A DNA stretch of 57,285 nt, counting the filler, from Dirinaria sp. TL-2023a (Eukaryota), in the NCBI GenBank assembly GCA_051941275.1. It is 2 parts of 2 records of this genome, joined end to end, with 100 filler letters (N's around TTAATTAATTAA, not from the genome) between each part and the next. Parts side by side here need not be neighbours in the genome. Positions count along the whole stretch, not along the records: positions 28,784 to 57,285 come from JAVEBF010000124.1; 1 more part is not named here. One strand, 5' to 3'. The notes beneath the pieces were generated by a model that did not search any database, had not been told where the DNA came from, and saw only the letters and a list, made by a program, of their open reading frames with translations. How positions within the stretch are numbered: position 1 is the stretch's first letter; every line of letters starts with the position of its first letter. Below are positions 8,738-49,739 of the stretch, piece after piece. The position numbers and the translations under genes were made by a program.

Positions 8738-8812
8738 CGGATAGAAATAGCTGCCTATAGACGAGCATGCAGCAACACTAGTTTTCATAATATTGCCGAC
8801 GACCTTGGTAGC
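8738..8812 (-). pseudogene. CRM1: CRM1 fragment, copy 2
   Basis: TKVVGNIMKTSVAACSSIGSYFYP; aligns at nucleotide level with 7903-7972. Confidence 0.8.
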
Positions 8813-9860: not shown

Positions 9861-10703
9861 TGAGGCAGGACATGTATGTTGCTAGTCGCGTGGCACTCAT
9901 CCACACGAATGCGGAAGAGTGCCAATCTCAGAGCCGGTCAACCTTAGTCTTCACAGCAGAAGTTTGCCCTCACTGGATAAACCAGATCGGCACCCCATCT
10001 TCACGAATGTAGAATAGGGAAATATGATAGAATTTGATAAGCCGGCTGGCAAGGCCACGCCGGTAGACACCCGCCGACATAACATCGACAGGGGGTCCAG
10101 CCCATAAAAGGAGAAGGACGAAGAAGAAAAAGAAGGGAGAAAGGTGAGGCGGAGCAGAATTAAATACGTGGTGGCGCCTCGCGCTAAGCGAGCGCGCTTA
10201 GCTAGCTTGCCCTAAGGCATCATCCTCCAATTGAACATCGGGGCAATTGCATGTGCCATCGCCGATGGGAAAAGATTTGTTATATGTGGATCTTCACTGA
10301 TGGCATCAATGGACAGCTACCCACATCCCCCATCACGAGCCAGAAGTGAAACCCCTATCGAGCCAATTTTTGAGTAATCTCAGTGGCAGGTGTCCCTGAA
10401 CGTGGCAAATAGTGCAATAAACCGATTGGGATCCTGCTGGCGTAGAGTAGAGAACAAGTAACAGCTCAAAGCAGCCAATGCTGGACGTAGTTCACATATC
10501 GAAGACTTATCAGGCAATGCAGACATTTCTCAGGGCATGACCAGTGAACGAGATATAAAATTCTCACTTGATTTACACTAAATTGCTGTCCCTCTCTCCT
10601 CCCTTTCTCTAGATTGTCCAAGGGCTAAATCTACACAGAACTGCTTGTGGATAAAGGCAGTTAAATGTGCTACGCAAAGCAAATGATATGTAGCTGGTCA
10701 TGA

Positions 10704-14777: not shown

Positions 14778-16303
14778 CCTACTTTAACGATTTGTCTATT
14801 TGACGATGGCACGTTCGTGATCAGCATCGTCATCTCGTGAAATCATCGTTGCTTGAAACTCGCACTCTGTCAGAACATGAGAGAGTGATAGACTTAAGCC
14901 CGAAGAATCAAAGAGATCGAATAATGCATTATCAAGCGAGAATGAGTAGCAATTAGTAGGGAAGGGTGGTGTGCCAGTAGAGTAGGCTTAAATGAGCTTT
15001 TTCCTCTTCGGCTTTTCTGATCTCAGGTACAATGTGGTTCCCTACATGTACCTACCTTATTGCCAACATTTCATGTCGAATCATTGGCTGAACAGTTAGT
15101 AAGCAATTCCTAATTGAGAGCCTTGCATATGGCGGGAGGGAACCTCAAATCCTCGGCGATACAGTATCACCAGCACGTGGAAGATCAAGAGAAATATCGT
15201 TGGCCTTCTTGGACAATCAAGAGAGTGCTATTTTGACTTGTATCGTGTATAATTCACATGGATAACGAAGTGAACCCTGCTGCTGAGCCTACGTCTGCCC
15301 ATGGCTCCAATAATGCCCAGAAAGATGAGACACAGCGGTCCCAGGAGCCAGGTAGGCAATTCATTTCTGCTACGAAACAAAGAAAACCTCTGTACTGAAA
15401 CCTTAGCTAGCGCCAGGATTTTCGAAAGTGGCAACCAAGCTGTTCCAAGAGCTTGCGACAGTCGAGAAACTTGTCGAAATTGCCATCAAACCGTCAGCCC
15501 AGCCATTTGAGTACAGACGGTCGAATTTGGACCCATTGGCAGTTCACGCTGCCGAAAGAACTTTGAGGACGTTGCAGCTGATCAAGGAAACGCATGACGA
15601 AATCTCGCGAGGAGAACTCTTACTCATTGTCGAGGAGATAGTGGAGTTCAGGACCAGGGAACTGACTAGGCTTCTCAAGCTTTCAGCCCAGTTCGCGACC
15701 TGTGGTCATATTGACAAGGTGATCAATGAGATATTTTCGTTGTGCTAGTTCACGGAATCGCAAGCATGGTTCAAAGACTGGCGTAGATGACGTACTTTGA
15801 TATTGATTGCTATCAAATGTGTGAGCAGTCATTTCTGCGCCAGCAGGTTCTTTAATGATTGCGTTAGGCAATTATTATCGTCACATCACTCTACTCTATT
15901 GACACACCACCTTTCCTCACTGAATGCTGCTCATTCTCGCGTGATAATGCATTCGATCTCCGTTTTTTGATGTCTCGAGCTTTAAAAGTCTATCGATCTT
16001 CTTTTGCTCTGACAGAGTGCGAGTTTCAAGCAACGATGATTTCATGAGATGACGATGAACTGATTCACCACGAACGTACCATCGTCAAATAGGCAAATCG
16101 TTAAAGTAGGTTGAACGCGTTTAGGATTTGGGAGAGGTATTGATAGATGGCAAACAATAAGTGGGCAGGGCGGCGCGGGCAGCAAAGTGAAGGTGGTGTG
16201 GCAATAGAGTTACTAATTGGACAGCCAACAGTTCGGTAGGGAATGTTGGCAATAGGGAACCACATTATATGTCAGAAAAGCCGAAGAGGAGAAAGCTGAT
16301 TCA
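14778..16303. repeat. Long imperfect inverted repeats (two blocks) around a small gene
   Basis: Block A 14778-14985 is the reverse complement of 15891-16110; block B 14987-15102 is the reverse complement of 16209-16303; a further ~20-bp inverted pair at 15894-15913 / 16189-16208. No target-site duplication found. Confidence 0.85.
15301..15748 (+). CDS. Hypothetical ~130-aa helical protein (two exons) inside the inverted repeats
   Basis: Exon 1 15301-15351 (MAPIMPRKMRHSGPRSQ), phase-0 intron 15352-15406 (GTAGGC..TAG, weak branch point), exon 2 open to TAG at 15746-15748 with amphipathic helical composition. Confidence 0.5.
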
Positions 16304-16684
16304 AGAGAGAACCCCCTAGTAGCCGACTTTTTCGTCATATTGGCGGGATGCATGAGTCTGCAATGACACGAATATGGAGACGTTCCGCGTATCACTCACT
16401 ATGTGGGCCTCAACTACCAACAGTCGTTTGATGGCTGCTCTGGAAGTTATTGGAATACTATGATAAGATTTTACTGGAGTCAGCGTACTAAATCTCCTAT
16501 CCTCGAAAGTCTACTCCCTCGAAAGTCTATCTCCTGTACTCCAAATACTAAATTACATCGAATTTCCAAACGATCCAATGCTATGATGCAGCGGATATCA
16601 CGATCGGAGCTGACAGGACAACTGGCTCGGTGGAATCGCATGCCCCTCCAAAGCCATCAGAGCCTTATACAAAACAGCCAACTC

Positions 16685-25368: not shown

Positions 25369-28012
25369 ATGAGGCTAATCCAGGTCTCTTTACTCGGGCT
25401 GTTGTCATGCTGCAATGCGATTCCACTGTTGCAAGGTGATGGGGGCCTTTCGGGAGGGATGCACGAGCCAATCAAAGGCTCTGCGACTGGTAAACCCATG
25501 CGATTCCAATATGCTCACCGATACTTATCCAATTGCAGGTGGTAATGGACAGTCAAGGCCTACATCAAGTTCGACGGTGCCAGCACAAACAACCCCTGTA
25601 AATCCAGATCAATCACCATCAGGCCGAATCACAAGCCAACCAGGACCTAGTCCTCCGGTACCAAATTCATTTTCATATTTGCCCGGTACGATTCCCGGTT
25701 GCACGTCAACCCAGACTGCCGTGGTGTTTGGCACGACGACATACATTCCAAGACCATGTCTCTCTGGAGGAAATGGCCCGAATACGGTCCCTGTTAATAC
25801 ACTCAACGATAAAGGACCTCCCCACAATGTTCCCCGTCCTCAGTCGACTGCCGATGGATTAGGCTCAGCAGGAGGTCTCATGTCAGCGGCGCCCCAAAGT
25901 TACAAACCAAAAGCCCCGGCGCCAAAGACGACTCCAGTTCAGAAAGCCAGCGTTGCCGAACCTAGATCTACACCTGCAGCTACGAAGCCTGTTGGCGAGC
26001 ACGTGGGAGGCAAAGGAGGGATGCCAATTCCTCGACCACAATCATCTGTCACGGATTTGGGGCCTCCTGAACCTACCACCGCCCAGGCTGCGCCTCCAGC
26101 TCAATCTTCGGATCAACCTGGTGGAGGCGGTAGAGTGCCCCGCCCAGAATCATCGGTCAAGTTTCTTGAACCCCTTAAACCATCTCCGTCCCACCCGGCT
26201 GCACCTAAACCATCTCCACCCCAAACTGGGCACGCGGACCATTTCTCCAATCTTCCACGTCCGCAGTCATCAGTCACATCACTTGGACCTGCCAAAGTTA
26301 GTCACCAGCCGGAACCTGTCCAGCCAGCGCCAAACCCTTCTCAGCCACCCTCTACGTCTCCCACCGCCAAACCATTGCCGCTCCCCGCACCTAAACCGGT
26401 ACCAATTTCGACAACTCCACCTCCAATCATCACAATCGGCAGTTCTACACTGACAGCAGATTCTTCATCGCATTTTGTTGTCGGATCCCAGACCCTGGCA
26501 CCCGGTTCCTCGGCGATTACAGATTCCGGAACGGTCTATTCGATACCTTCGTCTGGCTCAGCGATAGTAATCGGACCAAGCACTCAATCGATTGCTCCCG
26601 CCGCACCTGCATCCGCCCCAGTCATCATCCTTGGAAGCTCTACTCTGACAGCAAACTCCGTGTCGCAGTTCCAAATCGGCTCCCAGACTCTGGCACCTGG
26701 CTCCGTGATCACCGCAAATGGCCAAACCATCTCCCTCGCATCCAGCGCTTCTGCCGTAGTTATCAACTCAAATACCCAATCCATCACCCCTCAAATAATT
26801 CCGCCATCCCCAGTAATCGCTGTAGCAGGATCAGTTTTTACGGGAAATTCTGCATCCGAATTCCAAATTGGCTCCGAGACGCTTAAAGCAGGCGGTCCAG
26901 CTATCACCAACTCCGCCGGCCAAGTCTACTCGCTTGCCCCATCTGCATCCGCTATTGTCATCAACGGCCAAACCTCCCAGGTAACCCCGGGCTACGCCAC
27001 CCCAGCTCCAGTAATCACACTGGGTGCCAGCAAAATTACAGCAAACGCCCAATCACAGTATGTAATTGGAAGCCAAACGCTCTCCCCGGGCGCTTCAATC
27101 ACCGTATCCAACCGCGTTCTCTCCCTCGCATCTGGAGGCTCTGCACTCGTTTTCGGAGCCAGCACGCAAGCGTTAGCCACTCCGAGCAAATTCACACTCA
27201 CTCAACCACCGATTCTAACTCTGCCCGGAAACGGACCCGTGACTGCGAACTCGAACTCAGCATACGTGGTCGATCACCAGACCCTAAAACCAGGCCAGGA
27301 AATCACCCTCCACGGCTCAACAATCAGTCTTGCTCCTTCCGCCTCCGCTCTTGTAATCAACGGGCATACAACGGCCCTTACACCCCACTCTGTCCTCGCA
27401 ACGGTATCCCCGCCGTTGATCACCCTCGGGCCCTCGATCCTCACCCCAAATGCCAAATCAGCCTATCTCGTAGACGGAAAAAGTCTTTCTCCGGGCGGGC
27501 CAGCCATCACCTTCCACGGCACACGTCTCTCCCTCGCTCCTGACGGTACGGACCTTATAGTAGGCAGCTCGACGAGCCATCTTAGCCAGCGCGTCTTCGC
27601 TGTCAGCAGTACAGAAGCACCTACCCTGACCGTAGGCCATGAACGTGTCACTGCAGATTCAGCGGGTGATTTCATTTTGGGTTCGCAGACTTTAAGCCCG
27701 GGCGGACATGCGATTACGGTCAGTGGCACCGTAGTGTCACTGGCGAGCGACGACGCTTATCTCAAGATTGGCTCAAAAACGGAGGGGTTGGGAAAGCATT
27801 CCAGGCTGGAGAAGACGAGCAGCTTTGAGCCAAGCTTTAGGCTGGCAGAGCCGACTAGGAGATCTAGTGTTAGTGCTAGTCCTACTAGTCCTACTGCCAT
27901 TGCTACGGCTACTGCGGGGAAGAAGAGTCAGGCTGGGAGGATGCAGAGTGCTGCGGGAAGCTGGGTATGGAAATCATGTTTCGTGGTGGGTGCGCTGTTG
28001 ACATTCTGGTAA
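25369..28012 (+). CDS. Repetitive Pro/Ser/Thr-rich cell-wall protein, probably GPI-anchored (adhesin/mucin-like)
   Basis: Exon 1 25369-25435 encodes signal peptide MRLIQVSLLGLLSCCNA; phase-1 intron 25436-25538; four PRP(Q/E)S motifs; about seven ~65-aa P.IT.G...TA.S...F.IGSQTL.PG...IT..G...SLA repeats; hydrophobic C-terminal tail. Confidence 0.88.
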
Positions 28013-28683: not shown

Positions 28684-28783
28684 NNNNNNNNNNNNNNNNN
28701 NNNNNNNNNNNNNNNNNNNNNNNNNNNTTAATTAATTAANNNNNNNNNNNNNNNNNNNNNNNNNNNNNNNNNNNNNNNNNNNN
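28684..28783. other. Artificial assembly linker / gap
   Basis: Exactly 44 N + TTAATTAATTAA (stops in all six frames) + 44 N = 100 nt. Confidence 0.95.
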
Positions 28784-29440: not shown

Positions 29441-29554
29441 TGAGAAGAAGTACCTGTAGGTACCTTAATGTGAGGTAGGTAGCTTAGTCATCTACAGACT
29501 TCCTGCACTTACTTAAAGTACCCCACATACGTCCCACAACCGAAGGCCGTAACC

Positions 29555-31568
29555 ATGGCTTCGCAAAACGAGCCAAACCTCCCTTCTCGGTCAAAGGATG
29601 AAGGCACTGCCCAAGCACCCAGTAAGAATGCCCTGAAAAAAGCTGCTAAAGAAAAGGAAAAGGCCGAGAAAGCAGCGAGACGGGCCGAGCAAGAGGCCCA
29701 AGAAAAGAAGAAACGTGAAGAAGACGATTCCGCCAAGCATCTCTACGGCATTCTGTCCCTCCCCACCGACTCTGCATCTGCCTCGTCCCATCAAATTTTC
29801 ACTGAGCTTGTCGACCTCTATTCCGCCCAAGAAAACCAGGAAGTCACCGTTGATGTCCGAGTCCACAACTCGCGCGCCCAAAGCGCCAAACTTGCCTTCC
29901 TCGTCCTCAGAGAAGAGGCGCATACAATCCAAGCCGTTATCGCGGAAGGAGGCGCCAATGCCATTTCTCGGCAAATGGTAAAGTGGTGCGGGGGCCTGAA
30001 TACTGAGTCTATCGTCCGAGTAACTGGACTGGTCAAACCCCCGAAGGAGCCGGTGATTTCGACAAGCATATCAAACAATGAATTGCATGTGGAGAAATGC
30101 TTTCTCATCTCTCAAGCCGATGCGCAACTGCCGATACAGGTCAAAGATTGCATGCGAGCGCCACCTATGGGCGATGAAGGTGCGGAGGGAGAGAAGGAAA
30201 TCGATGCACAAGGCACACCCATCGTATCGCTCTCGTCACGGCTGAACAATCGCGTGTTGGATGCGCGTACGGCGGCCAATTTAGCAATTTTCCAACTGCA
30301 GTCCGGTATAACGAATTTGTTCATAGAGTACATGAATAAGCATAACTTTACATGGATCCAGAGTTCCAGGATTGCGGGCGCCGCTACAGAAGGGGGCAGC
30401 GGGGTGTTTGAAATTAAATACTTTGATGGCAAAGCATATCTGACACAAAGCCCACAATTTTTCAAGCAAATGGCGATAGCAATGGACATGAAGAGAGTGT
30501 GCGAGGTTGGGCCGGTTTTCAGAGCAGAGAATTCGAATACGCATAGGCATTTGACTGAGGTAATACCCTCGTCCTCTTCTCGATTTTCACTATCATGTCT
30601 TAATCTCTGAGATTGGTTTTTTTTGAGTCAAAGTGATTGAGGGATAGAATACTGACGTATTTGATCAGTTCACAGGACTTGATTTCGAAATGGTCATCCG
30701 GAACCACTACCATGAAGTCCTGACCTTTTCTGAGAAATTAATGATTTTCATCATCAGAGCGCTCCAGACACGAGAGCAGTACATTCGACTGACCAAGGTT
30801 GTCGAGCAAGTCTTCCCTGGCGCTGAGAATTTTAAGCTTCCACCTGGCGATGATGCTGTTCGGATAACGTTCGCTCAGGCGGTCAAGATGCTGAAGGAAG
30901 CGGGCGTGGAGGCCAGCGAGATGGAGGATCTGAGGTATGACTCCAAGTCGCGATCTGCTCTCACGTGGCAGCATTGGCCATGCCAAACGCACCCTTCATC
31001 CTCTAATTCCATACATGTCTATCAAAGCTATCTACATTTACCTCTTAAATCTATCGTTCAGGTCACAATAGTTACACCGCCTTCCCCAAACCGTCTATTC
31101 CCCCTTTGATAATTTCAACTTCGCCTCACTTCTTTTGTGCTAACCTACCACACTAGCACCGCACAAGAACGAGCTCTTGGCAAAATTATGTCCGAAAAAC
31201 ATGCCACTGACTTTTACACCATTGACAAATACCCTCGGCATGTCCGCCCCTTCTACACACATCCCGACCCAGCGAACCCTTCGCTCTCCAACTCCTACGA
31301 CTTCTTCATGCGCGGCCAAGAAATCATGTCCGGCGCCCAGCGTATTCACGACTACAACATGCTGTGTGAGAATATGAGGAAGAACGATCCGCCATTGGAC
31401 CCCTTGAGTGAGGGTTTCAAACATTACACCGACACTTTCAGGTATGGCTGCGCGCCGCATGGTGGAGGTGGATTGGGTCTGAATCGAATTTGTCAATTTT
31501 ATCTGGGACTCCCGGACATCAGGTTCTCGACGCTGTTCCCTCGAGACCCGGGGAGGTTGGCACCGTGA
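29555..31568 (+). CDS. Cytosolic-type aspartyl-tRNA synthetase (Dps1-like)
   Basis: Lys-rich N-extension [12 protein letters not shown]-fold ([13 protein letters not shown]), [15 protein letters not shown], motif 2 [19 protein letters not shown], motif 3 [14 protein letters not shown]. Introns 30560-30668 and 30935-31156. Confidence 0.93.
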
Positions 31569-32917
31569 CGAGGAATAGTTCGTGTCAGGTTTAGAGCAAG
31601 CAAAGTTTAGCTACGTGGGAAGCCTACAGTATGCGCATCGTGCACGAGCACTTGTACACCGACTTCCAAGTCCCATCATGCCTATTCTTTGAGCAGCCCG
31701 TTCCTTGCCTTGCATCACACGGGCCTTAATGTAAACCTACTTTGCTAAAGCAATGATGTTGATGCGCCGACGCTTATCTTTAGTATTTCGACGCCCCTTC
31801 TTCAATTTAGCCTTTCTATCCCCTGAAACCTATCTTTTGTCTTCATAGCCCCCTTCCACTCATTCGACCTCTGACGTATCACACTTGACAATTTTTGTAA
31901 AGATTATTGACTCGAAAACGAAGCTCTGTTTTCTTTCCTTGATCATGAGTACGTGGTTTAATCACTGTGTTCCAAGCGAAGTCTCAAGACAGTCAAAAGG
32001 AAACTCGATTGCCAAGAAGTGAACCAACTTGATAAGGTAAAGTATGTACTCATTCTGAAGCAATCACCAATGGTCGAATGCCAAGACGTTCTGGTTGAAC
32101 CGCTCGAACCCCAAGCGGCGCTCCCGGCCAACGTCCTCCGTACCGTCCCTCGACCCTAAAAATTAAACTCGCCAATTCTCCTTCCCTTTTCCATTTAGCT
32201 TCATAGCTTGTCGAAGAACTCATCAGTATTATTATTGCTACCACCACTACCTAAGGTACCCTCAACCCTCCACCAACACTTAGTGGTACTTATACTTCTC
32301 AGGCTTGTCAACTAGACCATGGCAGACCCTGACCCTAAGCCGACCTAGGAACCAGAAGCTCCAGAAAGAAGCCGGCTTCAATTAGCTCCCCTTCCCGTCA
32401 TACGCACCAATCCGCACATGCGACCAGCTAAGCTTTATGCATCGAATCTCTTTAGTTACTCACATACCATCCAAGTAATTGCATTTCATGGGTTGATGGC
32501 TGTCACATCTCGACATTTGTGCAGTCATGTGTTTCGGAGAGCTGTATCGCGAGCCGTGTCGCGAATAAATACCCCGACTGCTCACTGGTGCTGGATGCTA
32601 CCTTATGACGGAATGAAACGCTCCGTCGTTGTTCATTTCAAGAATAGAGCTACGCGACCAGCCGTGTCCCGCCCCTCCATTCTTGCCATTGGATGTGGGG
32701 GCGCACCGCGCATACATTATGGTAGGTCCTTCTCTTTGAATGTAGCACACCTCATTTCGTAGGCTCGAATTCTCGTAGGTTGGGTGAGCCCGCCTTCTCC
32801 ATTTTCCTGAAGCGCTGCTTCGTGCTTCTCTTTAGAACTACGATACTCGTGTTAGGAAAATAAAATCCCTAGAAAAGCCAGAGTGCATATCGGTTCTCAC
32901 TGTTCGCCTCTACCAAG

Positions 32918-34194
32918 ATGGTGAAAGAAGTGATATACACACTTCCTCCAAACGGCGATCAGGACCATGGCCCCGGCTTTCTTGCAGCGTGCTGGGTGTT
33001 TGCAATGGCTGCGCTTATCTCCACCATCGTCCGTATATTGGTGCGCAGTCGCCTTACGCGTAACCTCGGCTGGGATGATTACTGGATGATTTTAACAGAG
33101 ATCACTACTCTGGTCGGCCTGGGGTTCGTGACCAAGGAAGTGATCGATGGGCTGGGCAGACATATGTACTATTTGACGGAAAAGCATCGAAAGGATTTCA
33201 CTATCGTTGGCTGGCTCGATTGGATGCAGGCGTTCATCACGATTTGTTTTTGCAAGATCAGTATTTGTATGTTCTTGCTGCGGATCAAAAGTACTCGACA
33301 AAACGCCTACTTCATGTACACACTGATTGCGCTCAATGTTATCGTAACCATTGTGTGTGTCGGCATGTTCATTGGTATATGCAGTCCACCGGACGCCTAC
33401 TGGATTATTGGGAAAGAAGGCCGCTGTCTACCCCACAAAAGGGTGATGGCTATAGTGATCGCTCAAGGAAGTGAGTCTTTGTCTTCTCTCGATTTTCTCA
33501 TCAACCTCGATCTCCTTCATCCCATGTATAGCAAGAGCTGTTGAACTAAACTAATCGCCTTTTTCTGTCTGTCGCAGTCTTCTCCTCGATGACTGATATC
33601 ATCCTTGCCACCACCCCGTACTTTTTCCTTAAAGATCTTCAAATATCCCGCCGCACCAAAATCGCTCTGTGCGTCCTTATGGGCGCTGGCTACCTCACAG
33701 CCGCCTGCGCCATCGTCCGCACAGCCCTCTCTGGCCAAGTCCTCGAGACTGACGCTACATATGCTATGGTTCCTAATGCTGCCTGGCGCGCTACAGAAGT
33801 CAATCTGGGCATCCTCTGCGCAAATGCTCCCATCTTACGACCACTGTACCTGTGGTCCCGTGGGCGCTTGCAGAAGAAGAGTAAAAGCACTTCATATGTT
33901 GCTACTAGGAGTTCCAGGGAGCAGAAGAGCAGCGTTAGATTGTGGTCGAAGCGACATGCAAAACTCATACACGGCGGAAGCCAAGATACGAGCGGCTCGC
34001 AGAAGCTGCAAGGGGCAATGGACCGGAGTGGGTACACGGATACGAGCGCGGAGTTAGGTTTGCCCATTGAGGGATATCTAATGAATGAGATGAAGAATGA
34101 AGGCGGGAATGAATGGATGGAGGAGGAAAGGGGCAGGCTGGCGGCGCAAGAATGGACCCCTCCCCCCGCCGTGGCGCGGAAGGAAAACCATTAG
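32918..34194 (+). CDS. PTH11-like integral membrane receptor (fungal rhodopsin domain)
   Basis: RILVR..LGWDDY, GLGRH, CKISICMFLLRI, TDIILA..P, LQISRRTK, EVNLGILCANAP.LRPL; intron 33471-33577. Confidence 0.9.
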
Positions 34195-36759
34195 AACCTA
34201 CCTCATCCTTGGATGGCACAAGAGGCTGTAAGTTCACATCCTTAGATGAAGCTTGACGTTACGTGCCACTTACTGATCAAGGAAGCGTGCCGCTTGCCCA
34301 AAAGTCAGCAGCCGAAGCTTGAGATAGGAGAAATTTGCACGATGAAATCCATCTATTGAACATGACCCTGGGGAAAAGGAATGGTCATGCACTATCCTAC
34401 GAGATTCTACGAACGTATGGCCTTCACTTTAATGCAACATCAGAAGTCGCAATTGATACATGATCCGACGCTTTCCAAGAGCTGTACATTCACCGCGCCC
34501 TTTACTCTGAGGCTTCTCTTGAGGGGTCTGTTTCCAACCTTTTGTTGGCCAAATAAGACACTGTGAGCTATCTAAACAAGGCATCCTGTGCGCTGAAAGA
34601 CCATTGAAAGCTTATAATTATAATACTTGACTTTGTACCCTTTTACCTGCTAATCGTTCTTAGAAAGGTTCCTACATCAAACAGGCTCTCCACTGGAAGG
34701 AGCGTTGTATCTCCCGTGAAGCTGAACAAACCTGTACGCTTCATGAATCGAATGCCGTGGAATTGACTTTTAATCTATTACATTGCCAACACGTTCGGTA
34801 TCCTAGCCGACAAAGACTGCGACGATTATATTGCGTTGACAGAGGGTCCAAGACTTGACTTGATCCTTATTCTGGGTATCTTTTCTCCATCTCTTATGAA
34901 TCTCTGCGGCCAAAATATAGGGCTCCTGTTTGTTTGAATCGGTTCACTTGTGATTCTTAGGTTATGCCTGCACCAAGAGTCAGATACCGAATATTGCAGT
35001 CAATACTGAATTGGAAAAACAAGCTACTCACCGAGCATACTCGCTGTACAGGCTCTTGCCGAACTCGATCCCAGCAACTAGCACATTCGAAGGCTCAAAC
35101 AGCATAGCATAGGGGAGCTTCTTCGAAAGAAATGAGCTTAAACAAGGCAAATTTCCAAACAGCCATGAAGAAGAGTATAGACAGTTCAATGAAAGACTTT
35201 TCCAAGATGAGCCAAAGGCAGACTTTCCATCTCCTTGTTCATGAATGACAAAGTGACTGAGTGATGGTGATCATAACAACACATGACGCTACCCAGTGGT
35301 TAATCTCGCTTCGCGTTAGTGCCTTGGCATGGCTGATAAATTCCACCCTTAGCACTCTCACTCTCATTTTCACTCCCTGCTACCAATTTTTATGATCTTG
35401 TACTTGATTTCGAGGTCATGTCATTTCTACAGAGTCTATACAAGACGCTTCTATGGTCCAGACCCACCCCATCGCTCGCAGTACCGACGGGATGATAGAC
35501 CGACCTGTATAATCCAGCAAGAAGCCACAAGTCAGGATCACAGAGCGAAGAAAGGGCGGTGAGTGTGACATCAACGCGATCTTTGATGTGTGGGACAGAC
35601 ACATCGAAGCCCAAGTACATCGCAGCGGTTACCTGTTCATACTAACGGCTTACAGTCTTCCGGCTTTTGATTCAGGAGAATGGAGCCCAAGCATATGGCA
35701 GCGGCCCTTTTCTCATATTCTACCTTTCAAATCTTCCGACTTTTGATACAGTAAGGAGAACTGAAGTGCGAGCATATCGTGGCGGCTGCCTCGTACTAAC
35801 CTACACAGTCTTCCGGCTTTTGATACACTCAGGAGAATGCAAGTGCCCATCATTCAGAGATGAAAGAAACCGCAGCTTCCTGGAATGCGAATTGAAGTCC
35901 CGGAGAGTAACTACACGACGGCTCTTCGACACCGCATCTGTCGATGATTTCAGCAATCCAAAGAAATGTTACCGAGTCAGATCTACTCACCCCAAAGCTC
36001 TGAGATGCATCGACAATGCTCAGTTTGCCCAGCTGTCTGACTGTTTTCGATTCCAAAGCACCTAAAATGGCAACATACGCAGAATCAGAGCAAATCGAGA
36101 CTGAACTGCCCGCTTCCATCATCAAAATCACCACAATGTCTCCTTCGCATGGCTTTACGGAAACAGAATAATGTATTGGCCTTGGTGTTCAAGGCACCAA
36201 AGCCTCACCTTAGCAGCCATCTCGATCAATGCGATCTCCTCGTTAGCTACATCTCTACTGTCTCCTTACAACGCTATCTGGATCGACGAGATATTTACGG
36301 TTAGGTCGTTGAATACCTACACATGAAAAGCCTCACTACCGCCTCGCCACCTCACTCTATTGACACAACACCCTTCTCACTATTCATTCCAACGGTCAAT
36401 GCATCCAACCTTTGATGCCTTCCGTTCAAGCATATCCATCTTTCTGCTCCTACAAGGTTCGAGTTCCAAGCAAAGAAGGTTTCACGAAGTGACCATGGGC
36501 TATTTCACCACGACCTCACCATCGTCAGTTCAGCAGATCGTTAAAGGTTAAAGAGTTTAGGGAAAGAAAAAAGGTGCTTCTACAATAAACCATCCTCTCG
36601 ACATGAATACGTCCAACTTTAGTTCGCTCTCTCACTATATACTTCACCCGTCCTCCTCACCGCTTCGATTTCAGCTCTGCTTTCATCAAAAGCATAGCAA
36701 TAACCACGACTTATTCAAGACAGTAGACAATACAGAAAGCTAATCGATGGAACCCAAGA

Positions 36760-39700
36760 CTCTTCAATAACAGTGACTACTTACGGAAATCGATCTAATC
36801 TAACGATAATGTCGACAAAATGCTGAAGAAACGAGTCTCAGATGAGACATCAGTCGAGATTCGTGCTTCTTTCGCAAGCTCGACAGCTCTTGCAAATCTC
36901 TTGATATTCGGCTATTCAGTTTCAAAAGACAATCTTTTCTTCGACTTTTCGTCAATGGACAAAGAATATCGAGTGGAACAAGACGCTTTAAGAGCAAGAA
37001 CTAGGAAAACTGATTCAATCGAATAACGATGTGAAAATTACTCAGACAAAACAAAATTCAGACATCTGGGTCGACTTCTTTTTTCAAACTCGATAGCAGT
37101 TGCTATAAAAAGCGAAATGATACTGTTCTTATTATTCTGAGACTCTTTGCTTATTATCACTGCGACAATTGAAATGATCCATCGACAACCAAATTCAAAA
37201 GACGATCTTTTACTTTTTGGCAAAGAACATCGTGTGGAAACTGTTTAATAAGAAGAATCGATCTTATTAAACGACAATGTCGAAAATTACTCGAACAAAT
37301 CAAAATTCAGACATTCGAGTCGACGTCTTTTTTCCAAGTTCAACAGCTGCTGTTAACAGTGAAAGGATTCTGTTCTTATTTTTTTTAAATCTTTATCATC
37401 ACTGATGAGAATGCATTCACTAACACTTCGAGTTCTTTGATCAATTTCAATAGACGATATTTCTTCGATTTTTCGTCAAAGAATATCGAGTGAAATAACA
37501 CGCTTTATCGACCAAACTCAAGATACTCGAACAGCAGAAATCAGAAGTTACGAGAATCGATATTATTCAACGACAGTGGTCGAAAACTACTCGGACAGAC
37601 TCAGAGATTTCAGATCTCGAAGTCGATATCTTTTTTCAAGCTCAACAGCTGTTGTTAAAAGTGAAATGATATTGTTCTTATTATTTTCAAATCTTTATTA
37701 TCACTGAAGTTAATGCATTCACTGACACTTCGAATCCTTGGACAATTGATTTCAAAAGCCATCGCTGTTTTACTTTTGACAAAGGACATCGAGTGGAATA
37801 AAACGTCTATCGTACAAAACAGCAAAAACAGAAAACTCGTCGTTGGAACTCAGTCATTTCGAAACTCTGTCATTACTGACGATGACATTTCAACTTCTTC
37901 GCCGAGACTTAATTTCGAAATTTAATTTTTCATCGACAATAAAAAACAAAGAACATCTAGTGGAACAGAAGTTACAGAACTCTTAATCGACAACGAAAAT
38001 AAGAAAAAGCTAGCTTCTACAACGTTAAAGCAGCAGAGACGGCGAAAATCGATTGAACGAAGAACCTGACGAAGATCTAAAGAAATAACTTTTAGATGAG
38101 ACATCAGTCGAGATTCGTGTCTCTTTCCGCAATTCCGATAGCTCTTGCGATTGATGATAAAATCACAATCAGATCCCAGGATGCTCGAATAGCAAATTCC
38201 ACCGGAACCGATCTGCTTTAACGAAAATATCGACGAAAGTCTCACTAGTCTAAGCTTTGACACTAGAGTGTGTACTCTTTTCGCAAGCTTAGCAGCTGCT
38301 GCTGTGCACAGTGGCCAGTGGAACGATATTGCTCTTGGAATTTTCAAACTTTTACTATTATTGAAACTATGAAAATCGAGTCCTTCGATAATTATCAAAG
38401 AAAATCCAGTGGAACAAAACGCTTTAAAAACAGCCAAGCATATTCGAAAAACAAATCGACGAAATTCAAGATTTTAAGATGCTCGAGCAGTCAAGATTAC
38501 GGGAATCGATCTTTTGACGATAATGCGAAAAATTACTCAGATAAATCGAAACTCAGAAATTCGAGTCGACGTCTTTTTCTCGAGGACTAAGGTCAGCAGC
38601 TGCTGTTAACAACATGATGATATTATTTTTATTATTTTTCGAACTTTCACCATTACTGAAACTGGAAAAATCGAAAAAACGATCCTCTTTTTTTTTTTTT
38701 TACTTTTACGAAGCAAAGAATATCCAGTAGAAACTGTGAAATAAAATGCAGATGGTATACAACGAAGAATTCAGAAAGCTAACGAACAAATTTCAAGATG
38801 CTCCAGCAGCAGAGATCAAGAGAAACGATTTTTAACGATACTTTTCGCGAAACTGTGAAGAAATGAGTCCAAGCTTAGGTCACCCTGGGATCTGTGCGAT
38901 TGTTCCCTTTCCGCAAGCTCGACAGCTGCTGTTGTTTACAGTAAAATGATATTACTTTTGTCATTTCTCAACTTCTACCAGCACTGAAGCTAACGCGTTC
39001 ACTATTGCGTTTCCAGCTCTTCAGTTCGATAATCAGCTTTCAAAGACGATCTTCGTCACAATTTTATCCTCTGAAACTAGTCTTGGTCCTTGGACAAATA
39101 GTTTACGCGCTCTAAATAAAAATCAATCCATCCTCAAAGAAAAGTCGAAAAGACAATCTTTCTTCGACTTTTCCAAAGCAAAGAAGATCCAGTGGAAACT
39201 GTGGAATAAAACGCAGATGATAGACAACGAAGAATACAGAAAACTCAACAATAAAATCCCAGATGCTAGAACAGCAAATTTCACTGGATTCGATCTTATC
39301 TGTCGAAAATATCGAAAATTACTCGAACAAATCAAAGTTCAGACATTCGCGAGGTCGTGGGTTTTCCTACGAAGTCGGCAGCTGCTGTTGTTAACAGTGA
39401 AATGATATTGCTCTTGGAATTTTCAAACTTTTACTATCGTTGAAACTGAAAATATCAAATTTTTTCAAAACGATTTCAAAAGCAATCGTTCTTCGACTTC
39501 TCCAGCAAAGAAAATCGAGTGGAACAAAACCCATATCGTCCAAAACAAAAAGGGTTCAGAAAACTAACGAACGAAATTCAAAATGCTTAACCAGCAAAGA
39601 TCAAGAAAATCACGAATTCACGAGAATACGTTGGGCATCGCTGGAAAATGTGGATCTTTTTGTCCAAGATCGACAGCTGTTGCTATTAAAAGTAGAATAA

Positions 39701-41100
39701 AATTACCCTTGTTATTTTCAATCTTTTACTACCATTGAACATGGAAAAATCGAGTCCTTCGATAATCAGCTTTAAAGACAATCGTTCTTCGGCTTCTCCA
39801 GCAAAGATATCGAGTGGAACAAAACGTTCAAGACAGGAAATTCAGAAATTCAGAAAATTGATCAATAAAATTTTAAGATTTTGAACCAGCAAAGGTCAAG
39901 GAAATCACGATTAAACGAGAATACGTTGGGCATCGCTGGGAAATATGATATCCTTTTCCCAAGGTCAGCAGCTGCTGTTGTTAAGGATAAAATGATATTG
40001 CTCTTGCAATTTTCAAACTTCTAACCATCGTTTAAATTGGAAATATCGAGCTCTTTGTTGATCATCAAAGAAAATCGAGTGGAACAACACTTGTAATCGA
40101 CAACGAGAATTACAGAATGTTATTCGATGGGACTCAAGACACTTTTATGACTTTGTCCTTGTCATTTTCAAACTTCCATTATCATTGAAATTACGTACTC
40201 ACTATGTACGACGGGATCTTCGAGAATCGATTTCAAAAGACAATTTTTATTCGATCTTTTAGCAACGAAGATCCAGTGGAACAAAACGTTTAGAAAATAG
40301 CGAATGGTATACAAAGCTAGCTTTTGAGATGCTCTAACAGCAGAGACTACGGGAATCGATTTAACGGAAAACTTGCCGAATGTCTAAAAACATGAGTCTC
40401 GGATAAAGTATCGAGCTCGATGCTACTTTTACAAGCTTAGTAGCTCTGGCGATCTACGATAAACTGACATTTATCAAGTCATTTTAATTCTTTATTATTA
40501 ATAACGAGGACCATTCAGTTTCTTCGATAATGAAAATCAAAGAAAATCGAGTGAAATACGGCGCTCAATCGATAAAGAAGAATAAAGAAGTCAATTCAAA
40601 ATGCTCGAACAGCAGAGACTACGAGAGTCGATCTTATCCAACGGAAGCTTGAAAAATAAGTCTAAGCTTAGACACATGGATCTGAGCTCTTTTTTCAATT
40701 TCGATAGCTCTTGAGATTTATAAATTCTTCAACAATCAATCTCAAAAGCAATCGTTCTTCGACTTCTCCAACAAAGATATCGAGCGAAACAAAACCCATA
40801 TCGTCCAAGACAAAAAGAGTACAGAAAACTAACGAACGAATTTCAACATGCTTAACCAGCAAAGGTCAAGAAAATCACGATTTCACGAGAATACGTTGAG
40901 CACCGCTGGGAAATGTGGATCTTTTTGTCCAAGGTCCTCAGCTATTGTTGTTAACAGTGAAAAAATATCGCTCTCCCGATTTTCAAACTTTTCCCTCCCT
41001 TGGAACTATAAAGATCGAGCCCTTCGATAATCTTCTTTAAAAGACGATTCTCGCCACACCTTTATCCTCTGGAACTGGAACTAACCTCCAACAATCATCT
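36760..41100. repeat. Degenerate tandem array, sub-array A (~15 units, typically ~170-330 bp)
   Basis: Landmark ATC(G/C)AGTGGAA at about 36971, 37232, 37488, 37791, 37958, 38407, 38725, 39190, 39517, 39812, 40077, 40274, 40549 and 40782, with recurring GATGCTCGAACAGCAG, GAATCGAT, CAGCTG..GTTAACAGTGAAATGATATT and ATTTTCAAACTTT motifs; near-identical blocks from 39481 and 40748. Confidence 0.9.
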
Positions 41101-43790
41101 TATGAGCTCTTATTAAAACCCGAGCTATTTGCAAAACAAAGACGAAAAATTACTTAATTCTAAAACTACAACCAAAATATCATATTCTCCAAAGCCAAAA
41201 CGAATTGAGACGTCGACAGACACTTTATACGGCTCTCATTTGAGAAGAATTAACTCGCGTCACAATTTTATTCTTCGAACTATCCTCGAATCAATTCATC
41301 GAGAGAGTCTAGATTACAAGCGAATTTATTCTCAAAGAAAAGTTCAAGAGTTACTTAATTTTAATGTGCTTCAAAAACCTCACATTCTCGAAGACCAAAA
41401 CGAATTGGGACGTCGATAAATACTCTATATCACTTTCTTATAGCGATACATTATCCATTTCGAACCCTTCGATAATAGGCTTCAAAAAACAGTTCTCGTC
41501 ATATTTACTTTCTTGAAATGAATCTCGAATATTCGAAATCGATCTTGGTCCTTGGACAATCATATCGAGATACTCAATTGCAAGAGAATTCATTCTCAAG
41601 CAAAGACAAAAGAATTATTTACTCATGATCTGCTTCAAAAACCTCATATTCTCAGAAGTCAAAACGAAAGAGATATCGAATTCATGAATCGATAACACGA
41701 TGAGAGTTTCTAAAATTTTAAAAGACAGTTTTTGCCACGCTTTTGTTCTCTGGAATCGACCTTGGTTCTTGAACAATAATCTTGACAGTTTCAATTCCAA
41801 GAGAATTCATTTCAAATCAAGAACGATAGAGTCACTTTCTCATACTCTACTTCAAAAACCTCACATTCTCAAAAATCAAAACGCATTGAGATGCCGAGTT
41901 CTCTCTTTCAAGAATCAATAAATAGACAACTCTATTCGCTAAAAGACTATAACAGCGCTGTTCAGTGATGAATCGAGGACGAAAAAGATGCTCTTCAACA
42001 TCGATCACTAAACACGTTATCTTTTTTCCAACGTCAACGCGAGCATCTGTGAGGATATACAACGAGATGAGATTATTCTAGTTATTTTCAGACTTTTGTT
42101 ATCATTCATGATGATAAATTCAGCTTCTTGGATAAGAAGTTGAGAAAGAACATTCTTTCTTCGACTTTTTCGATCTGGAATTGAGCTTGTTAAAACTCAA
42201 GTCATTCGCAAAGACGAAGAGTTATTTACTCGTACTCTACTTCAAAAATCTCACATTCTTCAAAACTAAAACGAACTAGATGGGGTTGTTTCTATTCTTT
42301 TTAAGCTTTTGCTATCATTCATGACGACAATCCAGTCTCTTCGATAATCAGTCACGAAAAAAAATCCTTCTTCGACTTTTTCGATCTCAAGTTACCAACT
42401 ATTCTTTAACAACTAGGCTACGAGTTTTAACCAAAACTCAACACAATCGAAAGACGAGACGCTATTTGATCATAATCTGCGACAAGAACCTCACATTCTC
42501 AGAAATCAAAACGAATAAAATGAGAGCACGCGAGTCTCAATTTGAGAATTTACGAAAAGAAAATCTTCCGTCCGTTTTTTCGATCTGGAATTGATCTTGT
42601 TAAAAGCAAATTCATTCTCAAACAAAAATGAAAGAGTTATTTACTCATACTCTAGTTCAAAAATCTCACATTCTCCAAAACTAAAACGAATAAGATAAGA
42701 GCACGCGCGATGTGCGAGTCTCAATTTGATAACTCGTCAAAAGACAAACTTCCTTCGATTTTTCCGAGCTGGAACTATCGATTGATCTTTAACAAATAGA
42801 TTGCAAGCTTTAATCAAAACTCAACACAATCGAAAGACGAGGCGCTAATTGATCATAATCTGTCACAAGAATCCCACATTCTCAAGAGCTAAAACGAGAT
42901 GTGCGAGTCTCAATTTGAGAATTCGTCAAAAGACAAACTTCCGTCCGCTTTTTCCACCTGGAATTGACCTTGTCAAAAGAAAAGTCATTCGCAAAGACGG
43001 AAAGAAACTTAATCGTGACGTACGACTACAAGCTCTACGTTCTAGAGAGCTAAGATGAGCTGAACGTGAACTCACACATCTCAATTCGAGGATTTATGAA
43101 AAGACAATCAGACCGAGGGTCGTTTTCAATTCGCAAACACTCAGAAGAACGCTATGCGAACGCGTGTTTAAAACTCCACGTTCTCAAGAGCTGAAAGAAT
43201 AAAAAATCGACATGTAAGATGTGCGAGTCTGAATTTGAGAAAATTTATCAAAAGAAAATCTTTCTACAGCTTTTCTCACATGAAATGACCTTGAACAATA
43301 AGATTCAGAGCCATTTTTCATTTGTCAAAACGAAGGGCCATTCAATCATAATCTGCGACAAGAATCTCACATTCTTCAAAGCTGAAACGAATGAAATGTG
43401 AGAACTTACGCTATGCGAGTCTTGATTTGAGAACTCGTCAAAAGACAATCTTTATTTCGCTTTTTCCACCTGGAATTGGCCTTGAAAAATTAGACCGAGA
43501 GCCATGCTTTATTCGCAAAGCACTCAGGAGAACGCTATGCGAACGCGTAGCTTAGCTATAATCTCAAAAACTGAAATGAGTGAGACGTCAGCTCACACAG
43601 TGTGCGAATTTCAATTTGAGAATTTGTCAAAAGAAAATCTTTCCACAGCTTTTTTCATCCGAAACTGGTCTTGAAAAATCAGATCGAGAATCACGCTTGA
43701 TTTGCAAGCTCAGAAGAACGCTATGCGAAAGCGTGGCTTGGACTATGTCCTCAAGAGCTGAAATTAAATGGGTGTGACGTGAGCACAAAC
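41100..43790. repeat. Degenerate tandem array, sub-array B (~12 units, typically ~140-260 bp)
   Basis: Landmark AA(C/T)CTCACATTCTC at about 41381, 41645, 41862, 42252, 42492, 42667, 42875, 43036, 43177 and 43368, with GCGAGTCTCAATTTGAGAATT, AAAAGACAA and CTGGAATTGA motifs. Confidence 0.88.
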
Positions 43791-44751
43791 GGTGAAACAA
43801 GGTCATGGAAGAGTTCGTTATTCGATAATGCCGATATCGTTCTTTTAAAAACTCATCAACCGGAGACTTAAAAGATCCTGCGCCAGACATCCTCAACTTA
43901 CAGAAATCACCTTCGATAGAGTTACAACCTAATTGTTCAGATTGACACAGCGCGGAAGTCTTACAATCTTAATCTTCTTCTGCACCGATAACATTCAAGA
44001 TTGAGCGAGTTCTTTAAGATCTGCATTCGTCGGTCGATGTCTGAGAGCGATGATAATTGATAGCGGATGTCGACGATCGAGCAGTTAAAAGAAAGAGCTT
44101 CATAACCGCTCCGCGCAGTGTGCCATCATAAACCTCGCTCTACGTGTATCATCATATCCCTCAGATTCATTAGGATCGTGGCGCTGATCAAAAATGTACA
44201 GCGCGAGTATAGTCTAGCGGTAATTCTTCCTGTGTCATGTTTATCTCGATAGATATTTAATATGCTCAACCATTCAATGGCTGCCGAGCACTGAAACAAA
44301 ATTCAAGTTCGACGAGCTTACTACATGAATCTCTTTGTGATCGGTCTCGGAGATGTTTAGTGTAGAGAGAGCATGTGCAGCCTTTTTCGTTCTCCACTTT
44401 GAAACCGTCTCTTGTTGGAGGTATTTACAGTCGATTAACTAGAGAATACTCTACGAATAAAGTCCACCTCTATTGCGGAATGTTTAGTGACCCGCCTGCA
44501 TAGGCAAGTCTAGTGCTTTCGGTCGTTATTGCTACCTGTTCGAGCTCGTAGGTTATCATTTCGACGGACCGTTTTCCTGGTATGCTTTCTGAGCTTTCAT
44601 GTATCGCGAGCGCTGGAGGCCGCCCGTGGTAGACGCGGCTGCTGCGAGTACCTGTTCCTCCCAAGCATCTGTTGAATAACCTGCACCCTGTGCGTGCATC
44701 CTGAACCTGATATTAATGATATTGTATATTGTCATGATTTCAGAGCCGAGC

Positions 44752-46178
44752 TCAGTCCAATGAGGGTGGCTCTGGCCATCCGGAGTGCTCCAATGCCCAT
44801 TGTACGGCAGACTTGACATCTGTTGCGATAATTTTCGGCTCATGTTCTGGCTTACCGTGCTTGTAGACGCCGGTTTTGACCAGGATAGAAATCCAGTCTG
44901 TTCCAGAAGGACTGATGTAGTCGTTCGCACCCTGGATGTCCGAAGCGGGATTATCTAATTGACTTTAGCATATCGGTTCAGACAATTGGTAATAAGGAGA
45001 CCTGCCTCCAACCATATAGACACGTTGCAAACTGCTTTGCGACATTCCTTTTCCACCTAGCAGCATCTTCCGATGGGCATCAAGTTTTCGCTCTGCGAAC
45101 GAGTACGTCTCATACGATGGCTTCCCAAACACTTTTTTCTTCAGCTGAACGCCTTCCGCTTGGCCCCCTGTGACAGCGTTCCAGACACCTTCAAACGCTT
45201 CGCGGAAGCCTCCTTGCCCTAATCTGTCAAGGTGGTACTCAGAAGCCCACCATAAATCGGGATTTGAGAAGTATAGTCTGGGTTGACCGTCTTGCTGGTA
45301 CCCTCGATTGGGTAAATCTGCATTGCCATTTTCAGGCGATAGTGTGCCAAGATAGCCTTGGTGCGAGAGGAGCAGATCCAGTATGATTTGTGTATCGAGC
45401 GCCCAATCTCGGGGGTCATGGAAGACGAAGATTGCGTCGATACGGAGTCTTTGTTCCTTGTCAGTATCGAAATCCGGGTCTGAAATGATGGGGTACGGCA
45501 GAGATTGTGCGTGAGAGGTGTAGAGCTGACGGTTAGCAACAGGCCAGAGTGAGGGATACGCGGTTATAAGATCTCCAGGAGTTATCACGTTGGTGAAGCC
45601 ATATCTACGTTGACCAATTAGAGACCCGCGCAGACATTTCTACTATAATCCTCGCCCGTACCTTTTTGCGACATTGCGACATTGGCTGCCTTCCCCGCCT
45701 AGGACAAGGACACACTTGTTCTTCAATGGAGGAGCCCCATCATATCCATCAACCAGCTGCGCAAATGGCGTATGGCTCTGTACAAACATGTCCGTGTCTA
45801 GTGGAACATCAAGATACTTGCTGATATCTGAGACACGCTGCTCTTCCGTCTTTCCTCCGCCATTGGTGAGAAGAATGAAGGGTATGCGATGGGACTGGAG
45901 ATAGCGGAGGGTTTTCGAGGCACCAGGAAGGGGCTTAGAACTGCGTAAGAGGACTCCATCGATGCTGTGCTTTTGTTAATCTTTCGTATAAGCAGGTGGT
46001 AGCGGGCTTACTCGAAGGCGAAAGCAAAGTCAGGAACATTCTGGACGCTGCTCGAGTTTCGAAATAACCTGTAAAATTTTGATAAATAAATGGGGCGTAC
46101 AGATGAGCGGACAAGGGACGGAAAGCTAGGTTTTATAGGAGAGTAAGGGCAAAATCTCCGGAAAATTGCACTTGCCAT
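44752..46178 (-). CDS. HAD-superfamily IIA hydrolase, CECR5/HDHD5 (YKR070W-like), probably mitochondrial
   Basis: FAFAFD|IDGVL, ILLTNGGG, VFHDPRDWALDTQI, FSNPDLWW, RLGQGGF, FGKP, MVGD|NPASDIQGAN, SILVKTGVY; three introns, the last a GC-AG intron at 44955-45005; Arg/Ser-rich presequence-like N-terminus. Confidence 0.92.
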
Positions 46179-48791: not shown

Positions 48792-49739
48792 TTATGCGGG
48801 ACACTTGCTACAGACCTCGAACTCGCCACTCGTATCAGTCTCGCTGCAAATATCAAACGGCACCTGCGCCTCTGAGCAAAGATATGCACAACACTTGCTC
48901 GCCGGCGTCGGACATGCTGCAGCGCTGGACCTCGAGCAAGTCGACGTAGGTGTGGGAGTCGATGTCGTCTTCGTCGTCTTCGTCGTCAATGTATTCCCAG
49001 CAGGGCATTTGTTGCACACCTCGAACTTGCCGCTGGTATCGGTCTCGCTGCAAATAGCGAAGGGCACCTGGGCCTCGGAGCAGAGGTAGGCGCAGCATTT
49101 ATTCGGTGGGGTTGGGCAAGCCGAGGCGCTGACTCTTGCGCATGTCGACGCTGATGTAGGAGTAGATGTCGTTGTAGTGGTTGTTGTCGTTGTGGTTTCA
49201 GTTGGGCATTTGTTGCATACCTCGAACTCGCCGCTGGTGTCGGTCTCGCTGCAGATATCAAAGGGCACTTGAGCCTCAGAGCAGAGGTAGGCGCAGCATT
49301 TGTTCGGTGGGGTTGGGCACGCTGAAGCGCTGGATCTGGCGCAAGTTGAGGGCGTGAGGGTCGATGCTGTTGAGGTTGTCGTCTTCGTAGGTGAAGGGGT
49401 AGTGAGACAGCTGCATGCGCTTGAGATCCTCTGTTGTACCGTGTTGTTTATTAATCAAGAAGGAAAGAATATAGATATAAGGCTAGTACTTACGGTGTTC
49501 CCGCATGTGGCGATGGGGCTTGGAGCTTGCTTAGTCCTTTAGACAATGTTTAGTAGACTTCACAGGAAGCGGGATGGGAGGAAGCCCCACGAGGTAGCTA
49601 AGTACTCGCTGCAGAAGGCGGAGGACGTAGAGGACTGATAGCGGACGAGAGCGCGGTAGCAGTTATCATGGTTGCACTTGGCCGCCAGGGCTACCGTCAC
49701 AGAAGCCGCGAGTGTTGTGATTACCTGAGTGAAGCGCAT
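48792..49739 (-). CDS. Secreted protein (~276 aa) with three tandem 8-Cys modules and Thr-rich linkers
   Basis: Exons 49739-49591, 49536-49494 and 49430-48792; signal peptide MRFTQVITTLAASVTVALA; N-terminal CNHDNCYRAL..FC..RISSACSC module; three near-identical C-X7-C-X6-CC-X3-C-X9-C-X11-C-X2-C repeats. Confidence 0.88.

Follow-up and report, generated by a model that had tools for sequence, protein, structure and literature searches.

The stretch analysed here is a 57,285-base window of nuclear DNA from a filamentous ascomycete (Dirinaria sp. TL-2023a; all coordinates count along the whole window). At positions 36711-43860 it carries a ~7.1-kb array of ~30 diverged head-to-tail units on one strand, placed between the 3' ends of two convergent genes. 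On balance, we read this array as an ancient, lineage-specific, non-coding tandem relic of megasatellite size, which is probably no longer homogenised and decays almost neutrally as a spacer between its convergent neighbours. The array is not a product of repeat-induced point mutation (RIP), not a repeat-protein gene or pseudogene, not a recognisable transposon and not a cluster of structured-RNA genes.

Units, zones and mosaic blocks

The array is real: the tandem block that the earlier note had described between two ordinary genes was recovered both by self-comparison and by models of its units. BLAST of 36001-44500 against the window returned 135 non-self high-scoring segment pairs (HSPs), of which 135 were direct and 0 inverted, and 134 of the 135 lay inside ~36.7-43.8 kb. 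Two profile hidden Markov models (HMMs), A and B, were each grown from one unit by iterated nhmmer and searched over the full window. All 34 matches were on the + strand within 36711-43684, with none elsewhere in the window: i) the A model matched 19 times, 17 of these in 36711-41049 and two in the B zone at 42056-42383; ii) the B model matched 15 times, 13 of these in 41139-43684, while the other two were B-like tails at 39021-39139 and 41020-41135. The 34 matches include fragments of single units, and the number of units is nearer 30 than the ~27 first counted, while their degenerate tandem arrangement was upheld.

The A-type sub-array (36711-41135, + strand) comprises ~17 units with head-to-head distances of 246-650 bp (commonly ~295-302 bp), including two hybrid units with B-like tails. 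The B-type sub-array (41139-43860, + strand) comprises ~13 units with head-to-head distances of 160-383 bp (commonly ~160-240 bp); BLAST HSPs reach 43794, and a final partial unit, read by eye, may follow and run to ~43860, with the shared-module motif recurring at 43821. The irregular spacing reported earlier was reproduced with the motif ATCGAGTGGAAC at up to two mismatches, which recurred at steps of 261, 256, 303, 167, 449, 783, 327, 295, 265, 197, 275 and 233. The succession of type A by type B holds as a zoning (17 A matches, then 13 B matches) but not as a clean split, since A-like pieces also occur in the B zone. These are the two A-like heads within 42056-42383 (+ strand; A-model E 2.4e-25 for 42056-42219 and 1.2e-16 for 42274-42383), sister units that are 74% identical.

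The A and B unit types have a module of ~85 bp in common, and profile matches and alignments both agree with the shared module seen earlier. A B-like piece had also been noticed within the A zone; it corresponds to the tail (39021-39139, + strand) of a hybrid unit at 38923-39139 and has its counterpart at 41020-41135, at the A/B junction (B-model E 2.2e-10 and 2.6e-08 respectively). Between 39025-39078 and 41023-41076, 45 of 54 positions are identical, and in the unit tree the B-like tails of the hybrid unit and of the junction unit (40939-41135) group together with a support of 0.978. The hybrid and junction units are thus mutually closest in their B-like tails, and therefore a junction-spanning piece was copied into the A zone.

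Duplication also involved blocks of several units. Such multi-unit blocks recur at offsets of ~1264, 1254 and 380-411 bp and are now 80-85% identical, which supports the proposal of a mosaic satellite-like array built by repeated duplication. The youngest detectable block duplication (39453-39782, + strand; partner 40719-41048) is the best HSP, at offset 1264, with 282 of 336 positions identical (83.9%); 36814-36893 and 38068-38148 agree at 66 of 82 positions (80.5%), and 42403-42514 and 42786-42897 at 96 of 113 (85.0%). At 80-85% identity, the description of such non-adjacent blocks as near-identical was an overstatement. Tandem Repeats Finder detected only 39374-40020 (period 295, 73% matches), and since it sees only 2.2 copies the array is highly degenerate. 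The longest exact repeat inside the array is only 34 nt, which makes an assembly artefact unlikely.

In arrangement the array is satellite-like, with non-coding monomers standing head-to-tail in a single orientation, and its size (head-to-head 160-650 bp, ~7.1 kb in all) falls within that of a megasatellite. The homogenised monomers that concerted evolution leaves in satellites were not found among its units, which had a mean identity of 63% and a maximum of ~81-85%. More precisely, mean pairwise identity was 62.7% for A (n=151 pairs) and 63.0% for B (n=96 pairs), with maxima in the unit alignments of 81.5% and 80.6% respectively. Adjacent units were 65.0% and 66.4% identical, near the overall means, so that neighbours are not more alike than distant units. 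The unit tree was star-like, with terminal branches mostly of 0.1-0.5 substitutions per site and total lengths of 4.5-5.1 (19 A rows) and 3.6-3.9 (15 B rows). This pattern suggests that the units are old, and it carries no sign of ongoing homogenisation.

Base composition and mutation spectrum

The array is the sole AT-rich island of the window, with a G+C content of 36.5% (34-40% over seven 1-kb bins) against 48.8% in the rest of the window. Observed/expected dinucleotide ratios in the array were 0.51 for TpA (depleted), 1.41 for CpG (enriched) and ~1.5 for GA and TC, and the tetranucleotide TCGA had a density of 15.6 per kb in the array vs 5.4 per kb. The + strand is skewed in both base pairs (A 35.0% vs T 28.5%; C 19.8% vs G 16.7%). 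Analysis of dinucleotide periodicity and curvature in the array gave no dominant 10-bp or unit-scale peak.

As an AT-rich island of diverged duplicated DNA in a Pezizomycotina genome, the array resembles the RIP relics of filamentous ascomycetes, of which the zeta-eta tandem duplication of Neurospora is an example. Unlike these relics, it fails the RIP indices and shows no preference for CpA, and its TpA is depleted and its CpG enriched. The thresholds given for RIP are a product index (TpA/ApT) above 1.1, a substrate index ((CpA+TpG)/(ApC+GpT)) of at most 0.75 and a composite index above 0 (PMC6963459). In the array the product index was 0.61, compared with 0.73 for the remaining window, the substrate index was 1.19 and the composite was -0.58; each is on the wrong side of its threshold. 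Substitutions in the array, counted relative to the unit consensus, were likewise free of a CpA-context excess of C>T: the rates were 49/323 (0.152) for CpA>TpA, 47/303 (0.155) for CpT>TpT and 15/129 (0.116) for CpG>TpG. Together, the depletion of TpA and the enrichment of CpG are the opposite of the trace left by RIP or by long-term cytosine methylation, and with a CpG ratio of 1.41 a history as heterochromatin carrying 5-methylcytosine is hard to square with the array. A RIP-mutated duplication was thus ruled out by the three failed indices, the lack of CpA preference and the dinucleotide pattern. The earlier suggestion to reverse C>T changes in the consensus presumed RIP-type mutation and falls with it.

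Among array copies the transition/transversion ratio was 1.48. AT>GC changes occurred at 0.151 per site and GC>AT changes at 0.209, implying an equilibrium G+C content of ~42%; this is above the present 36.5%, as expected of an AT-rich founder relaxing towards genome composition.

The anatomy and spectrum are consistent with the following history of an ancient relic. One AT-rich seed of ~200-300 bp would have been amplified by unequal exchange or replication slippage and would then have split into two unit types, each retaining the common module of ~85 bp, and single units and multi-unit blocks would later have been re-duplicated. Amplification and homogenisation would have ended long ago, and each copy would since have accumulated its own ordinary point mutations and small indels, with its base composition moving back towards that of the genome. 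At present the array would most likely be a largely or wholly functionless spacer where the 3' ends of the convergent genes face each other, and the few short motif blocks that change more slowly, mainly in B units, may be protein-bound.

Constraint, coding potential and element searches

Several observations weigh against almost neutral decay: i) 71 of 236 A columns were at least 90% conserved, vs an expected 34 and no more than 49 in any of 500 simulations; ii) gamma-distributed rates beat equal rates (delta lnL 25 for A and 11 for B), but with alpha at 2.0-2.4 this heterogeneity is mild; iii) in B sister pairs, conserved columns differed at 9.3% (16/172) vs 24.7% (81/328) elsewhere (p=2.5e-5), i.e., they changed ~2.7 times more slowly; iv) the unusual composition of the array is odd for junk DNA, and much of it may have been inherited from a single founder unit; v) it is somewhat unexpected that a 7-kb neutral block should outlast ~0.25 substitutions per site per copy in a gene-dense window. 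The sister-pair comparison used five pairs per unit type and only those positions where pairwise and profile alignments agree, with conservation scored from the other units; in A sister pairs the same comparison was marginal (15.2% in conserved columns vs 21.8% elsewhere, p=0.06). Column conservation varied about twice as much as expected under a uniform model, and in B units the conserved columns were clustered (lag-1 autocorrelation 0.206, p=0.003). The slow columns are A/T positions, and a mutational context effect is therefore possible.

The slow blocks of B units hold ATTCTC/TTCTCAA-type motifs in both orientations. ATTCTC occurs 16 times (10 on the + strand and 6 on the - strand) in the 2.8-kb B zone, i.e., ~5.7 per kb vs ~0.7 per kb outside, and TTCTCAA 13 times, ~4.6 per kb vs well under 1 per kb outside. 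The B zone also has 10 copies of CATTCY, without exception on the + strand; this is the motif recognised by TEA/ATTS factors, AbaA and Tec1 among them. A short palindromic motif is present in several B units. Such motif density, together with the slow, clustered blocks in B sister pairs, the palindrome and the absence of a competing conserved RNA structure, would fit a DNA-level binding platform, in which a motif array for a sequence-specific protein serves as a chromatin boundary, a terminator or fork barrier, or a regulatory cluster, by a logic like that of factor-bound macrosatellites. We consider this unlikely. Founder motifs are amplified automatically with the units, so that motif density by itself says little on the matter; the rate heterogeneity is mild and only marginal in A units, the slow A/T columns may be mutational in origin, and the promoters of both flanking genes face away from the array. 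As a weak signal, the slow blocks would be compatible with protein-binding boxes and also with context-dependent mutation, founder effects or residual alignment bias.

On the coding side, the earlier statement that the array has no long open reading frame (ORF) was sustained: + strand ORFs do not exceed chance, the longest (151 amino acids) being matched or surpassed by 36-42% of order-2 and order-3 Markov simulations, and no protein domain is recognisable. The possibility that the units encode a repeat protein (ankyrin, TPR, WD40 or LRR) was looked for and found no support, as none of the 77 array ORFs of at least 45 amino acids reached the Pfam cut-off and none matched a repeat family. Only two sub-threshold Pfam matches had E below 0.01 (PIN_11 with 18.5 bits vs a cut-off of 26.6, and PRA1 with 16.3 vs 30.1), neither of them a repeat or transposon family. 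The consensus of each unit type has at least two stops per frame in all six frames, and the consensus lengths (247 and 173) are not multiples of 3. Column variability in the units had no period-3 signal (p=0.24 for A and p=0.14 for B), and indels were not biased towards multiples of 3 (34/154).

Two candidate frames were rejected individually. A stop-free frame of 183 codons at 37925-38473 on the - strand was reached in 0/300 order-2, 0/300 order-3 and 1/300 order-1 simulations; its first ATG comes only at codon 124, and it has no Pfam family and no homologue in a word-seeded search against proteins of 100-321 residues. A micro-ORF (a 13-codon ATG...TGA frame whose length is kept in several A units) has the wrong codon-position pattern, the first position being the least variable, and gives only a weak signal (p=0.09).

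In Candida glabrata, megasatellites lie in-frame in genes and are under purifying selection at the protein level; neither feature was found in the array. It could still be a dead coding megasatellite, a former repeat-protein gene (e.g., for a cell-wall protein) that has decayed beyond recognition. The unit length of ~160-330 bp and the 7-kb extent are within the megasatellite range, and stop codons are fewer on the + strand (3.6-4.4% of codons) than on the - strand (5.1-7.4%). Against this stand the stops in all six consensus frames, the missing period-3 signal, the unbiased indels, the consensus lengths and the lack of a Pfam family, as well as the late first ATG of the - strand frame and its lack of a homologue in the length-limited search; we regard a coding origin as highly improbable.

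Searches for RNA signals were similarly negative. Rfam gave no match to the array at the gathering score, and the sole match at E up to 1 was a chance-level miRNA (20 bits vs a gathering score of 97). ARAGORN predicted no tRNA, and no rRNA or tRNA fragment was present in the window. Folding z-scores in sliding windows averaged ~-0.5 on both strands, near those of shuffled sequence, and RNAalifold on the + strand found no consensus pair for nine A units or for nine B units. UNAAAC motifs, which resemble determinants of selective removal (DSR), were not enriched (23 observed vs ~19-20 expected). Look-alikes of intron or branch sites, of RNA polymerase III A and B boxes and of C/D boxes were inspected by eye and dismissed, not being conserved across units.

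These results bear on the idea that the array is transcribed and yields either a long non-coding RNA that is unstructured or small RNAs, for example by way of double-stranded RNA formed by read-through from the convergent genes. Its place between two 3' ends, the single orientation of its units, the A- and C-rich + strand and the strong depletion of TpA would all suit such a source. On the other hand, there is no Rfam family, no folding signal, no consensus structure and no UNAAAC enrichment, and complementary substitution rates are near-symmetric (A>G 0.104 vs T>C 0.124; C>T 0.146 vs G>A 0.172). Near-symmetric rates leave no clear transcription-coupled mutational asymmetry, and the strand skew can be inherited from the founder. 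An RNA source is in our judgement doubtful, with a small chance of being right.

Transposon signals were equally sparse. The absence of transposon termini noted before was supported, as the search for terminal inverted or long terminal repeats yielded only 18 weak short pairs, the best boundary-spanning one being 21 nt at 81% and not convincing. Transposon protein domains occurred in none of the 77 array ORFs. By protein domains and terminal repeats, then, the array matches no known transposon; no search was made against a nucleotide library of transposons (Dfam/Repbase). Satellites derived from retrotransposon repeats and from ribosomal DNA (rDNA) spacers are described in plants (PMC7004042, PMC2679016), and 150 bp to the left of the array there is a dispersed-repeat copy (36354-36561). 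The array might be what is left of tandem repeats from inside a transposon, or from an rDNA spacer, after the loss of coding or terminal portions. This origin has little probability: convincing terminal repeats, transposon domains, and rRNA or tRNA fragments in the window are all missing, the dispersed repeat has no copy on the right side, and the units have no homology elsewhere in the window.

A metagenome scan with a 24-position IUPAC motif found two loci with no array at either; they match only the motif itself and are therefore chance matches.

Genomic setting and comparison with known systems

The left flank of the array is a fungal rhodopsin domain gene (32873-34194, + strand; PF20684 with E 2e-21 and 4.4e-18 on two adjoining ORFs), and the right flank is a gene for a CECR5-type HAD-superfamily hydrolase (44788-45963, - strand; tblastn of the homologue P0001 covers 45963-44788), both with their 3' ends towards the array. 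The hydrolase had 321 homologues; the best of these, at about 63% identity, belong to Lecanoromycetes, Dothideomycetes and Eurotiomycetes, and no close relative was found among the 321. Other genes in the window encode major facilitator superfamily (MFS) transporters, an F-box protein and an aspartyl-tRNA synthetase (AspRS; 29522-31565, + strand), the last lying to the left of the rhodopsin domain gene.

Between the 3' ends of the rhodopsin domain and hydrolase genes, no gene was recognised over 10.6 kb (34195-44787), of which the array forms the right-hand 7 kb. The ORF-poor spacer to its left (34195-36710) has an ordinary G+C content of ~47% and holds the dispersed-repeat copy at 36354-36561; its longest ORF has no Pfam family. 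Homology to array units was absent from the left flank even with nhmmer --max at E up to 10, and the right flank had a single marginal match (E 0.052, 4.5 bits). The left spacer also contains a small tandem repeat at 35608-35846 (offset 76 bp, 70% over 172 bp), overlapping a 139-codon frame with no Pfam match.

In other Pezizomycotina the hydrolase and AspRS are covered by single fused gene models, among them P0055 (an Aspergillus) and P0020 (Thelocarpon), seven such rows in all; in those genomes these two genes must therefore be neighbours with the same orientation. In the present window the pair is convergent, separated by 13.2 kb that include the array. Thus the AspRS-HAD interval is rearranged here, and the array is probably lineage-specific, a view drawn from gene models rather than from aligned genomes.

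As the sole AT-rich island in the 57-kb window, inside 10.6 kb with no recognised gene and between convergent genes, the array could also be imagined as specialised chromatin of an ascomycete lineage that has been little sampled, whether a small regional centromere or an island of another type. It shares with fungal regional centromeres an AT-richness relative to its surroundings and the lack of recognised genes. Unlike them, it is of satellite type, has no visible RIP relics or transposons and is far smaller than most centromeres of Pezizomycotina. The centromeres of filamentous ascomycetes are mostly tens of kb of RIP-mutated transposon relics, whereas the array carries no RIP, and its high CpG argues against long-term cytosine methylation. 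According to PMC13682844, described fungal regional centromeres are generally without satellite-type higher-order arrays. We therefore hold a centromere or similar island to be quite improbable, and we give equally little credence to the more specific version in which a satellite-built regional centromere or factor-bound chromatin domain of an under-sampled Pezizomycotina lineage would use the slow motif blocks as protein-binding boxes. No telomere repeats were found in the window.

Further repeats and features were observed elsewhere in the window. The dispersed repeat (~130-330 bp) forms an inverted pair at 14778-15102 and 15891-16305, with two sub-segments permuted and at 82.5% and 70.7% identity; its third copy, at 36354-36561, is 67-74% identical and lies 150 bp left of the array. 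The HSP between 36433-36561 and 15991-16125 is unrelated to array units, and the repeat may be an element like a miniature inverted-repeat transposable element (MITE) or a shared regulatory module. Direct repeats of ~75-130 bp (72-87% identity, spaced ~0.7-1.9 kb) at 7888-10028, upstream of an MFS transporter ORF (10704-12113, - strand), may be duplicated gene fragments. A tandem repeat at 48796-49388 (offset ~204 bp, 78% over 353 bp, third register 75%) sits in G+C-rich sequence with long ORFs on both strands and may be a coding repeat. An open frame of 877 codons at 25379-28012 (+ strand) has no Pfam family and lies in the most G+C-rich part of the window (~56%), with a GC skew of -0.32 at 26-27 kb. 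Two runs of 44 N (28684-28727 and 28740-28783), separated by 12 bases, were read as masked or unresolved sequence.

Among described systems, the closest to the array are the megasatellites and compound minisatellites of C. glabrata. Their megasatellites are described with motifs of 126-429 bp and arrays of up to 10 kb (Thierry et al. 2008, PMC2566889). Megasatellites and compound minisatellites alike are reported there inside protein-coding genes, with motifs under purifying selection (PMC2566889; Rolland et al. 2010, PMC2919712). In those accounts the C. glabrata repeats share with the array long motifs, two motif types that can intermingle, a divergence sufficient for trees, and growth by duplication and transfer of motifs. 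Unlike them, the array is intergenic and has no open frame, codon pattern or protein-family match. The literature searched held no comparable non-coding array, only coding megasatellites and plant or animal satellites.

Two other comparisons are more distant. Classical animal and plant satellites and macrosatellites (e.g., DXZ4 and D4Z4) likewise consist of head-to-tail non-coding units of nucleosome-to-dinucleosome size, with sub-families and block duplications; unlike such satellites, which are usually homogenised and present in many copies or loci, the array averages 63% identity and is seen at one locus in the window. The Major Repeat Sequence (MRS) of Candida albicans, built of RPS units, has highly similar units of ~2 kb and occurs on most chromosomes. 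It resembles the array in lying in a chromosome arm of an ascomycete and in being a complex tandem repeat, mostly non-coding, that contains nested sub-repeats. Array units are far shorter and diverged, and no sequence relation is expected with the MRS, which belongs to a distant yeast lineage.

Thus the array, of a kind rarely described in filamentous fungi, is a documented case of long and very old non-coding tandem DNA that escaped RIP-type mutation within gene-dense ascomycete sequence. Its meaning would depend on which reading holds: i) if it is a neutral relic, as we favour, it would be a natural record of the background mutation spectrum of its lineage and evidence that RIP was inactive on tandem repeats when the array arose; ii) if the slow motif blocks bind protein, or if every chromosome has one such island, the array would represent a macrosatellite of fungi with a role in chromatin; iii) if the centromere reading were true, it would reveal a satellite-type architecture that fungal centromeres are generally said to lack.

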